A stretch of DNA of 64,000 nt, from assembly GCA_963666835.2 (NCBI GenBank), contig CAXXGO010000001.1, positions 128,001 through 192,000 on the forward strand, given 5' to 3'. Made by a program: the position numbers. Position 1 is the first letter of the stretch. Every line of letters starts with the position of its first letter. Positions 27,001-30,000 of this stretch are shown in pieces. The DNA is from Phycisphaerae bacterium. GTDB lineage: Bacteria; Planctomycetota; Phycisphaerae; UBA1845.

Positions 27001-30000
27001 CCGGGCGTGGGACGGCAAGGGCGAGCTTACGGTGGCGGACGTTGCGACCGTTTCGTTCCCCGGGGCACCGGCCCTTACTCCGTGTGCCCAGCACAAGAAC
27101 GAGGTCCAGGAGATCGGTTTGAAGCACTACCGCGTGGGCTCAAAGGGAGTGCCGGCGGCGGGGTAACGGTTCAGAACGATCGGCGGGGCGGGGCCGCGCT
27201 TGCCCTACGGGGGGTGGTATGGATCAACTTGTTGACCCGTGGAGCAAACGCGGTCCGCGGGGGTGAACGCTCCCCGCTTGTTGATCACGGTCACAGCAAA
27301 GACTAACCTTGACGGGGTTGGGGTGTTGTTCAACCCGTTTCGGGGTTGGTCTGAGAAGGGGGTTTGTGACGCAGGGTGGCAGTGAAGCGGCTGCGGCGCG
27401 TCGTTTACCCTGGGCTTTGTTGTGAAACGCCTACCTTCCTGACATATGTCCACCCGGGTACCTTGGTAACGGACTTCGGGACTTGGGAGGACTACGCATG
27501 GGGCTGCGGAACAAGAAGAAGGAGAGGCTTGAGCGTCTTGACTCGAAGACACTGGATGCCAAGTTTTTGCACGAAATCAAGCACGGACTCCATTGTTCGC
27601 CATTCGAGGCCGAGGCGGTTCTCGATGTGGTCAAGGAAGTTTACTTCCCGTACCTCGATGAACACGCCGGCAAGGCCCCACCTGGCAAGATTGGCTTGGT
27701 CGTCGTCGACGCCGACGAGCCTGCCGGGAAACCCGTCTGCGAATGCCAGAAGCAGAACGTGTGCCTGACAATCCACCGAGGTGCAGAGGATGATCGACTT
27801 CTGGAGGAGGAGGGGCCGGTCGGCTTTCGACAAGCCCGCATCCCACCGCTTTGCCAAGAAGCCCTGAGTCAAGGTGGGCTGCTCACGCGCGAAGATCTGG
27901 CCTACCGGATGTTCTTTGTTACGCCACGAACCATTACGCGCGATTTGAACGCTCTCCGGAGTGCGTATCCCGGGGTGCTTATTCCTCTGCGAGGAATCGT
28001 ACACGATCTTGGTCCCGTGTTGACTCATCGCAGCCAAATCGTGCGTTTGGCTCTGGAGGGAAAGACGACCTCACAGATCTGCACCATGCTTCGCCATTCA
28101 CCGGCGGCTGTAGCGAACTACGTCTCGACATTCACCCGTTGTGCGCAGTTGGCAAAGAAAGGTATGCAGGTCGGGCAAATCGCCTTCCTTCTGCGGAGAG
28201 GCAAGCGGTTGGTACAACAGTACCTTGATCTCCTCGACGAATGCGCGGTCGACAAGAACATGGGCTATCACCTGGAAGAACTGATGCGCCTGGGTTGTTG
28301 TGGCGGGGGGAAAAAGGGACACGGTGAAGAGGGAAGATCCGATGGGTAAGCCGCGAGACACCAACAGCAGAAGATACAGTCCCCTGCAGGCGAAAACGCT
28401 GAGAAACGTGTTGGCTCACCGCATCGAAACGGAGTTTCCACGCATAGGCGGCCCACGGATTCGCAACCTGTGCGCAGAGATGATCCTTGAGGTCATCGGT
28501 GCCCACGTTCTCCCGAAGGAGCATATCCAACATGGTCAGATACTCTGGATGGCGATCAGCAGCGCAGATCCCCCGAGTCAGCGTCGACGGATTGAGGATA
28601 CCGATCTGCTTCCGGTGGTCTTGGACGTGAGTACCTTCGAGGATATCGAGATGCGTTTGCAGAAGAAGGGACGTGGAGAGTTGCTCTTACAAAAGAGCTT
28701 GAGGTTATGCCGGCAGGCGTACGAACAAGGGGGCGTTCTGTCCAACTCTGATCTCTCGGAGTTGTTAGCAGTCAATGCGTCGGACGTCTCGCGATTGTTG
28801 GCGGCGTACGAACGCGAGACCGGTCAGATCGTCCCACGTCGCGCTACTGTCCACGATGTCGGCACAGGGCTTACGCACAAACGGATCATCTGTTTCAAAC
28901 ATTACGCAGAAGGCAAAGCGGCTAACGAAGTGGCTCGGGAAACGTACCACAGCCTTGAGGCTGTGGATCGTTACCTGGGCCAGTACGATCGCGTCCGCCA
29001 CTGCCATCTTCAGGGGCTGACGGCAAAGGAGACAGCCCATGCTTTAGGTTGCAGCATCTTCCTGGTTCAGGAGTACCTGGAGATCGATCATGAGTTGGAG
29101 GGCCAGCATGCTTGACTCGATGGCACAGCACGTCAGACTTGTGTGTGCTGGTCGAGAGGACAGGGCTCTGCTGAGGAGCACCCCGAGCGCTCGTACCAGT
29201 GCCGGGACAGGCGCGGGAGTCTGCATGCACGGCGGGCTCTCGCTCTCCCTGGCCTGTTCTGGCTCCCAAGCGACAAACCTTGGGGGTCTGGGGGCAAAGC
29301 CCCCGGTGATCGCCACACGGTCGCGGTGGACATATGTCACTATCTTCGGCGTAAGCTGGATCCCGCGGCTCACGCCGTGGGCTAGGCAGAGCTGTCGCCC
29401 TGACGGGCTGGTTCCGCGAGCCACACGCGTGGCACATCTGCGTGCGGCTCGGACGATTACGGCCTTGATGGCAGGTCTCGTGCCTCGACCGTGCCCTACG
29501 AGTGGTGTCATCGGCTCCCCCATGTTCAGATTGTTCTACTCTGCACGAGCCTGACAGAAGCGTGGCATTAGAGAAACCCAATAGAACATGGGCCACCCGA
29601 TCGACGCCACCCGGCCGGATAGGCCGCGGCTATGACTGCGAGCCTGCATCCGATTCGTTGTCGAGGCGCTTTTTAACTTTCAACAGGCGCGATGTGTGGC
29701 TTTCATCGGAAGCGGATGCCGGCCCGCGTTCGGATGGGGTGCTTGTAGTCGGGCGATGTGTCTGCGGAATACTGTATCCCGATTGCCGCGCGGGCCGGTT
29801 GGCGCGGCAATCGGGGTTTACTTGTTCGTCGCGGCGTTGCGGCTGGTCCGTTGGCGGCTTGCCGGACTCACGCGTCTGGCTATGCGATTCGCGGAGGGCG
29901 GCGAGCGTTGCCACGCTTTTGGCGGCAACCTCTCTGGCGCCGAGTCCGTCCGTCCATCCGGTGAGTTTCTGGAAAAGCTCGGCGGGTGTGACCGCAAGGC

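Follow-up and report, generated by a model that had tools for sequence, protein, structure and literature searches.

An insertion sequence carrying two DUF1670 genes in a Phycisphaerae bacterium and its candidate site-specific recombinase

The element, its copies and its target

The window (the whole 64,000-nt stretch of DNA that was analysed, from which all unprefixed coordinates below are counted) contains two overlapping genes for DUF1670 proteins, enclosed in an element that splits a small palindrome downstream of a larger, REP-like one. The features of the locus are as follows.

27370..27416, + strand: large REP-like palindrome, preceding the target (78 regex matches in the genome)
27427..27431, + strand: left arm of the small target palindrome, ACGCC, whose last C is core base -1
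27432..29344, + strand: the element, 1,913 bp (1,911 bp, 27433-29343, if measured between the CT copies); six copies with 0–4 differences
27432..27437, + strand: first six bases, the TAnnnT -10-like hexamer of a predicted junction promoter (TAnnnT in 34/44 elements)
27440..27454, + strand: left 15-bp subterminal inverted repeat, enclosing the 10-bp palindrome (27441-27450)
27498..28349, + strand: orfA, DUF1670, 283 aa; invariant R165, D170, G172, H177, R178, H200, N207 and Y208 (Pfam, conservation, dN/dS)
28305..28315, + strand: G6-A5 run before the orfA stop, a possible slippage site fusing A and B (A run)
28342..29115, + strand: orfB, DUF1670, 257 aa; invariant D172, G174, H179, K180, H203 and Y211 (Pfam, conservation, structural model)
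29112..29139, + strand: promoter-like TTGACT and CAGACT, 16 nt apart, ahead of the RNA (xAxxAT consensus in 88 aligned tails; this copy below the scanner threshold)
29145..29281, + strand: core of the conserved, structured non-coding RNA (28 pairs, of which 17 change on both sides)
29290..29304, + strand: GC-rich hairpin after the RNA core, without a T tract
29325..29339, + strand: right 15-bp subterminal inverted repeat, enclosing its palindrome (29329-29338)
29345..29352, + strand: 3-nt target centre TTC and right arm GGCGT

Searches of the whole genome (6.02 Mb in seven contigs) with blastn and tblastn recovered six full copies of the element, four on contig C1 and one each on C6 and C7, with both open reading frames intact in each, and tblastn found no DUF1670 loci beyond these six. 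On the places of the copies, their equal length and their two overlapping DUF1670 ORFs, these searches and Pfam agreed with the first-pass annotation. The copies spanned 1,911 bp between two CT dinucleotides and differed from one another at 0–4 nt (99.8–100% identity), so that the 98–99.9% given earlier was too loose; the earlier length of about 1,913 bp stood if the T of the left CT and the C of the right CT are included. In four public sequencing runs, the depth of the contig carrying the element was several-fold above that of its flanks, a depth that is not a copy number, and an empty allele at this locus was again not seen in the contigs of these runs. No RNA run was named among the sequencing runs listed.

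The large palindrome gave 78 regex matches genome-wide, a few of which are not the repeat. Forty of the matches were followed by an intact empty small site and 7 by an occupied one, these being the six copies and a 25-bp scar at C6 739732, the same scar that had been reported in this loop. The 14-bp site AACGCCTnnGGCGT occurred 42 times in the genome, 40 of them behind the large palindrome, so that the effects of sequence and of repeat context are inseparable in this genome. The small target palindrome reads ACGCC-TTC-GGCGT and has a 3-nt loop; its description as a tetraloop had been based on a hairpin string with one G too many. With CT present at both junctions, we replaced the proposed absence or 1-nt length of a target duplication by a 1–2-bp shared core. 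The subterminal palindromes noted before are present, and proved to be part of a larger, perfect 15-bp subterminal inverted repeat enclosing the 10-bp palindrome and set in by 8 nt on the left and 5 nt on the right when the element is taken as 1,913 bp. Elsewhere in the genome, a Y1_Tnp gene (C1:801499-801843) is located between two large-palindrome matches; RAYT-type Y1 transposases are paired with REP repeats, and this gene together with the large palindrome fits such a REP/RAYT pair.

Several relics were found at the palindromes. In the scar, the left and right outer ends of the element are joined across one palindrome; at C5 242205, two right outer ends are fused head to head; C6 1881259 retains a truncated right end; and C6 ~796120-796400 holds a remnant of a second, diverged element. 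An inverted left outer end stands at the right side both of this remnant (at ~796380) and of locus L226. The scar, the head-to-head fusion and the inverted ends mark the palindrome as a recurrent crossover point, through either recombinase error or short homology.

Family anatomy and the predicted circle junction

At 90% clustering, orfA and orfB queries retrieved 1,453 and 1,432 relatives, respectively, and the orfB relatives formed 970 clusters at 50% identity (E ≤ 0.001). Most of the 120 relatives listed per ORF were located on contigs of 1–4 kb, as is seen with collapsed repeats. Of 301 genomes sampled from the phylum, two, one of them this genome, had a DUF1670 match above the cut-off; no orfB relatives were found in plasmids and no orfA relatives in phages. 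Scans of genome contigs yielded 134 distinct loci (62 loci plus 80 kept of 127), with titles naming Planctomycetota, Acidobacteriota, Anaerolineae, Bacteroidota, Desulfobacterales and others. Filtering these for a gene span of 1.4–2.0 kb, both palindromes, no N and distinct flanks left 44 sites, to which 15 further sites were added from at least 119 metagenome loci, minus five loci with miscalled ends (total n = 59). These 59 sites are kin, and the counts below overstate their independence.

Elements of the family measured 1.67–2.05 kb, with one 10-bp palindrome set back 9 nt from the left end and another 6 nt from the right end. The rebuilt targets were palindromes about a 3-nt centre, with insertion at the edge of that centre, and their arms paired at 3.17 of 4 positions, against 2.03 ± 0.11 (maximum 2.44) in 5,000 shuffles (n = 59). 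The arms differed by clade (GCCC/GGGC in 19, CCGC/GCGG in 5, GGAT or GGAC types, and others), with some sites poorly paired and G-T pairs in some arms. A very narrow target in the sense of a single sequence, as proposed earlier, does not hold across the family, in which the arms vary and stay palindromic. Target class switched once on the OrfB tree, a pattern that kinship alone could give. It should also be noted, as a counterpoint to the tyrosine model discussed below, that the targets are repeats and palindromic for reasons of their own.

Base -1 was identical in the flank and the right end at 59/59 sites (32.6 expected), with shifted offsets giving 33, 42, 5 and 6, and it varied among close relatives yet always matched the flank. 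Base +1 was common to both at 51/59 sites (35.5 expected), base +2 at 12/59 and base -2 at 7/59. All eight +1 mismatches kept the element's T on the left. The left junctions kept the element's own 3-nt centre, TAC or TAT at 44/59 sites, and the right junctions showed 28 different trinucleotides.

If joined, the two ends of the element would read palindrome-6-NNN-6-palindrome, a symmetric arrangement. We scored a junction -35 as at least 4/6 matches to TTGACA, placed 16–18 nt before a TAnnnT starting at element base 1. Such a -35 was present in 13/15 distant elements (L118 onwards) versus 2/15 of them with the target flank substituted; TAnnnT itself was present in 14/15 distant elements and in 34 of the 44 overall. 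For these distant elements, the sequences point to joined ends that would build a sigma70-type promoter, implying a circle. Among the near elements, that is, the clade of this copy, TAnnnT was found in 20/29 and the -35 in 0/29, this copy included, which is a counterpoint to the junction promoter. An end-to-end circle joint was not seen in the contigs of the four sequencing runs, and contigs drop rare forms. The junction pattern had 19 matches in genome contigs, none near a DUF1670 gene and one with family-like ends, and no match in viral contigs.

The DUF1670 proteins and the structured RNA

Both ORFs matched DUF1670 above the Pfam cut-off (E = 1.8e-37 for orfA and 1.6e-49 for orfB), and Pfam and NCBIfam together assigned only DUF1670 and helix-turn-helix (HTH) domains to them. 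The genes overlap by 8 nt and their products are 26% identical. Median dN/dS was 0.12 for OrfA (42 pairs) and 0.14 for OrfB (91 pairs), and both genes are under purifying selection. A run of A near the end of orfA was present in 22/22 elements listed; A and B stood in one frame at three loci, which may be homopolymer errors, and natural fusions of two and three domains exist.

Residue conservation was read from the 37 of the 44 elements with two readable ORFs. D172, G174, H179, R/K180, H203 and Y211 (OrfB numbers) were kept in both proteins in 37/37 elements, and OrfA additionally kept R167 and N210 (OrfB numbers; H171 varies). These residues make up a D-x-G-x4-H-R/K...H...Y motif in the second HTH, of which G174, H179 and Y211 were invariant across 75 sequences near 30% identity; the motif is likely to be the active site. 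Its spacing (R/K to H 22–23, H to Y 8) is close to that of the genome's own Xer-like protein (R to H 23, H to Y 9), and both show a similar helix-helix-His-helix run. In an hhalign comparison of the two, His fell on His and Tyr beside Tyr, at a probability of 1% and P = 0.049, which is not significant. HxxR is absent from DUF1670, and no box I arginine was found. As a counterpoint to a catalytic tyrosine, this residue sits where HTH domains often carry a packing aromatic, and the equivalent Y245 of the last HTH is conserved almost as strongly (97%).

The structural model of OrfB (pLDDT 89, pTM 0.77) opens with three N-terminal helices, which are followed by a beta-hairpin, then a winged-helix unit and two more HTH units. 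Given this N-terminal part, the hairpin and the invariant Asp/His/Arg-Lys/His/Tyr set in the second HTH, the earlier description of DUF1670 as built only of HTH domains was too strong. Structural matches spanned single HTH units only, the best having Z scores of 6.3 (rmsd 2.5, 53 aligned) and 7.2 (rmsd 2.0, 44 aligned). Foldseek against the PDB and viral models returned nothing at E ≤ 0.001. Among the best 50 rows of VIA-align, which barely covered the N-terminal part, only HTH and winged-helix matches occurred, with tyrosine recombinase, HUH, DDE and DEDD catalytic domains absent, an absence that rules out none of these folds. Sequence searches of the PDB gave only a designed CAP repeat and nothing useful, an Atlas search gave HTH clusters at 0.77–0.81 and then no usable match, and PHROGs gave weak scattered matches with no integrase among the 25 families listed. 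The Y1 domain PF01797 had no match in the DUF1670 proteins, and their alignments contained no His-hydrophobic-His column pair. An IS630/DDE identity, with an RNase H fold and D-D-E triad, was rejected: the IS630 match covered only that family's N-terminal HTH, at 12.7 bits against a cut-off of 100, and no more than two strands of at least three residues are present in the OrfB model. A predicted OrfA-OrfB complex scored 0.27, below the mark of 0.32, and speaks neither for nor against an association.

The two DUF1670 ORFs had been described as the only genes of the element. No other protein gene was found, but the right tail of 230 nt, conserved in the near clade, holds a structured RNA. A pattern for its core matched 17 loci in genome contigs and at least 119 in metagenomes, with none in viral contigs; orfB lay directly upstream in 116 of the 122 loci with enough upstream DNA, the pattern having been derived from such copies. 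A -10-like hexamer precedes the RNA (88 distinct tails). We aligned 55 sequences (54 of 87 at <93% identity plus the window copy), in which 17 of the 28 predicted pairs covaried on both sides and 97% of cells were paired; 0/500 shuffles reached this, and slid controls paired at 37–45%. Variants of the 5′ GGRY and 3′ AYCC segments, read by eye and without a count, suggest a possible pseudoknot between them. No Rfam family matched the RNA at E ≤ 1, either in the window copy or at five other loci.

The RNA is not confined to DUF1670 elements. The RNA model was matched in 9/61 genomes. In this genome it matched all five copies of the IS110-family element end to end, at 70 bits and in antisense orientation to the transposase; in relatives, a full-length RNA neighboured two integrase-core genes of IS3 type and an IstB gene. 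The RNA thus occurs in IS110-, IS3- and IS21-type elements, twice in antisense. It had no match in 21 distant DUF1670 loci. Intact relatives with right tails of only 19–49 nt exist; one RNA-less relative is present in four copies in a genome, a metagenome-assembled genome (MAG), where the RNA was not found, and 0/5 genomes of short-tail relatives, all MAGs, had more than a 30-nt chance match to it. No segment of the RNA tracked the target arm or the donor end (best 5-column match 0.55–0.57, excess ≤0.08). An apparent target match through AGGGC/AAGGC in the RNA was rejected as a compensatory pair inside the RNA itself (columns 19-40).

Mechanism, alternatives and related systems

We conclude that the element is a recently active, site-specific insertion sequence (IS) of a family named by none of the searches made. 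The earlier reading of an autonomous IS with a DUF1670 recombinase was borne out as to recent activity, site specificity, a family anatomy found in several phyla, selection and the lack of another protein gene, and we infer the catalytic role of DUF1670 itself. The substrate, read earlier as a DNA hairpin, may be a folded hairpin or a double-stranded palindrome. The predicted junction promoter and the RNA gene had been missed. The base-precise copies, the invariant residues and the symmetric donor and target lead us to read DUF1670 as a site-specific recombinase. We consider it highly probable, on the sequence evidence, that DUF1670 performs the catalysis; for the whole version, an autonomous IS whose two DUF1670 proteins form a site-specific recombinase with a tyrosine nucleophile, we lean modestly in favour, tyrosine chemistry being our best single guess.

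In the mechanism that we propose, the HTH domains of DUF1670 would bind the 10-bp palindromes and join the element ends into a circle, whose symmetric junction would, in the distant clade, form a promoter for the operon. The circle would then recombine with a target that is a short palindrome and is likewise built about a 3-nt centre, with crossover at the 5′ edge of both centres, where base -1 is shared and base +1 usually so. The target would be read by protein, with REP hairpins offering many safe copies. A covalent phosphotyrosine may form at Y208 of OrfA or Y211 of OrfB, aided by Arg/Lys, His, His and Asp; OrfA may be the likelier catalytic subunit, as it alone keeps the second Arg. The likeness to tyrosine recombinases could have arisen by very remote homology or by convergence.

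A DUF1670 enzyme of another chemistry, using a metal held by Asp and His and either cutting single-stranded DNA hairpins (HUH- or integron-like, finished by replication) or copying out with a 1-bp duplication, appears unlikely, though several observations suit it. The invariant D, H and H would fit a metal site; the retained left centre (44/59), the 28 right trinucleotides and the left T at 8/8 +1 mismatches look as if one strand were inherited; some arms contain G-T pairs; and a variable base -1 that always matches the flank is what a 1-bp duplication would give. Against this, the His-hydrophobic-His motif is absent from the alignments, base +1 is shared above chance, and the fixed insertion point and symmetric donor and target centres fit a site-specific recombinase. 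We give still less weight to a role for DUF1670 in binding, targeting or regulation alone, with the cutting done by an enzyme of the host or of another element (Xer, a topoisomerase, the REP-linked Y1 or the IS110-family transposase). Every structural match is to a plain HTH (best Z 6.3 and 7.2), the genome has 14 tyrosine-recombinase, 9 Y1 and 5 IS110 matches, and the palindromes overlap the predicted junction promoter as repressor sites would. Arguing against such an enzyme acting in trans, the same anatomy is met at different targets in several phyla, the genome's IS110-family element has unrelated ends, and His, Asp and Arg/Lys invariant in both paralogues would seem to exceed the usual needs of an HTH binder.

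That the tail RNA serves as a bridge- or seek-type guide for the recombinase seems very improbable to us. The idea draws on the IS1111-like anatomy, on a promoter-led, covarying RNA located where IS1111 keeps its guide (PMC11187229), and on orfB standing directly upstream in 116/122 core-motif loci. It is opposed by the failure of any RNA segment to follow the target arm, by the RNA-less relative in four copies in a MAG where the RNA was not found, by the lack of an RNA model match in 21 distant loci, and by the same RNA in IS110-, IS3- and IS21-type elements, twice antisense. The untracked target, the RNA-less relatives and the distant loci without a model match argue that the RNA is not a guide, and its best explanation is a passenger or regulator. 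Its sharing by unrelated IS families makes it a second lead, a passenger repeatedly picked up by mobile elements.

We regard this as a real, undescribed IS family, with a candidate new recombinase proposed from sequence. Literature searches found no paper with DUF1670 or PF07900 and, judged by title and the opening of the abstract, none on this IS family; most subscription papers, ISfinder and supplements lay outside these searches, and a supplement could name the family. Prokaryotic transposase chemistries are few, comprising DDE, DEDD, HUH, serine and tyrosine. If DUF1670 is indeed the recombinase, a base-precise, recently active element with none of the corresponding domains would add a transposase class, the Pfam domain DUF1670, with its 970 clusters, would gain a function, and the enzyme would be a very small site-specific integrase whose target varies by clade. 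This claim is open to testing through the invariant residues and the predicted junction. The joint claim is that DUF1670 would be a new class of small, HTH-built, two-subunit tyrosine recombinase acting with a 1–2-bp core at the 3-nt centre of a palindrome or hairpin, widespread in bacteria and archaea, and that one clade of it would carry a new pseudoknot-capable RNA gene moved among at least four unrelated IS families. We hold it tentatively, as falling a little short of an even chance.

Among known systems, PMC11187229 describes IS1111/IS110 elements as forming circles with junction promoters, and the IS1111 group (ISEc11, ISKpn4, ISPa11) as having subterminal inverted repeats with extensions of unequal length, a junction promoter and a fixed insertion point in repeats that fold, REP and attC among them. 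Inverted repeats placed unequally in this way are likewise family-wide in DUF1670 elements, although the extensions are 8 and 5 nt here rather than the 7 and 3 nt of that group. The DUF1670 element also differs in having two DUF1670 genes and palindromes inside the repeats, in lacking DEDD (PF01548) and Tnp20 (PF02371) domains, both of which the same library finds in the genome's IS110-family protein, and in having a long non-coding region that is dispensable and without a target match.

Copy-out-paste-in elements (IS3/IS30/IS256) have two overlapping ORFs, an A run near the join and a circle-junction promoter. The DUF1670 element shares the first two and, by prediction, the third, but has no DDE domain and shows subterminal repeats and single-base target specificity. 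Elements of the IS200/IS605 and RAYT type (HUH, Y1) encode small proteins with a Tyr on a helix, use hairpin-linked substrates and make no ordinary target duplication, all of which has its counterpart here, the Tyr of DUF1670 being conserved; unlike them, the DUF1670 element has no HUH motif or Y1 domain and has inverted-repeat ends, and the Y1 enzyme of this genome goes with the target repeat. Tyrosine recombinases use a catalytic R-K-H-R-H/W-Y set, a 6–8-bp overlap and a 3′-phosphotyrosine intermediate; among them (XerC/D, integron integrase, RIT and Tn916-type elements) are found operons of paralogous genes, donor and target sites that are symmetric, and tolerance of core mismatches, and the integron integrase uses folded targets. 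DUF1670 resembles them in an R/K...H...Y spacing approximating box II, in its operon of paralogues, in its symmetric sites and in tolerating a mismatch in the core, and departs from them in its core of 1–2 bp with a 3-nt centre in place of 6–8 bp, its lack of HxxR and its tandem HTH. Taken together, the sequence comparisons suggest an element that resembles IS1111 in anatomy, stands outside IS1111 by its transposase and guide, and resembles the tyrosine recombinases by motif only.

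Fused DUF1670 proteins and the orfA–orfB frame

Among the relatives of the element's DUF1670 proteins, we found fusions of two or three DUF1670 domains.

DUF1670 fusion proteins
P0263, P0264, P0271 and P0285: three-domain fusions, 930–952 aa
P0346 and P0368: two-domain fusions, 532–544 aa

In the triple fusions, the His/Tyr motif was missing from the first domain, and the Arg and Lys were divided between domains 2 and 3. A G/A run 5′ of the orfA stop (window 28305–28315) was present in all of the elements inspected for it (22/22), and the frame of orfB varied among elements, being +1 in some and −1 in others.

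Surroundings, ends and relics of the element

By eye, the ORF list upstream of the element (window 21596–27166) suggests genes for an NADH-dependent iron-sulfur flavoprotein complex. Just to the right of the element lies a second repeat, in which window 29362–29393 gave a weak match to Acido-Lenti-1 of Rfam (22.9 bits vs. a cut-off of 37).

Elsewhere in the source genome, we observed the remains of another DUF1670 element, a diverged one (contig C6:796120–796400). These contained the orfB tail, the structured RNA and then, after the palindrome, the left outer end in inverted orientation. Two right ends were fused head-to-head across the palindrome at C5:242205, and at C6:1881259 a right end was joined to a REP copy via a short shared stretch. 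In the element of locus L037, end segments were duplicated and inverted around the palindrome (L037:2040–2120 and 4010–4070).

At locus L343 (2192–2235), a 25-bp end unit was repeated, with right and left outer ends abutting at the spacing predicted for the circle junction; no DUF1670 gene was found within 2.2 kb of these units, and the small operon downstream looks, by eye, like a toxin-antitoxin pair. At loci L029 and L031 it was the left end, rather than the right, that carried approximately 300 nt of non-coding DNA, in which the RNA model found no match.

The structured RNA with other insertion sequence genes

In related genomes, copies of the structured RNA neighbored one IstB (IS21) gene and two genes of the IS3 type with an integrase core.

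Structured RNA copies in related genomes
L321:1501–1639
L322:591–723
L323:1501–1635

The source genome also holds five copies of an IS110-family element, IS1111-like with subterminal repeats (C1:1128997–1129163 and four more; loci L169–L173). The same structured RNA as in the DUF1670 element was present in this IS110-family element, where it lay downstream of the transposase and antisense to it, with its own promoter-like signal and a GC hairpin.
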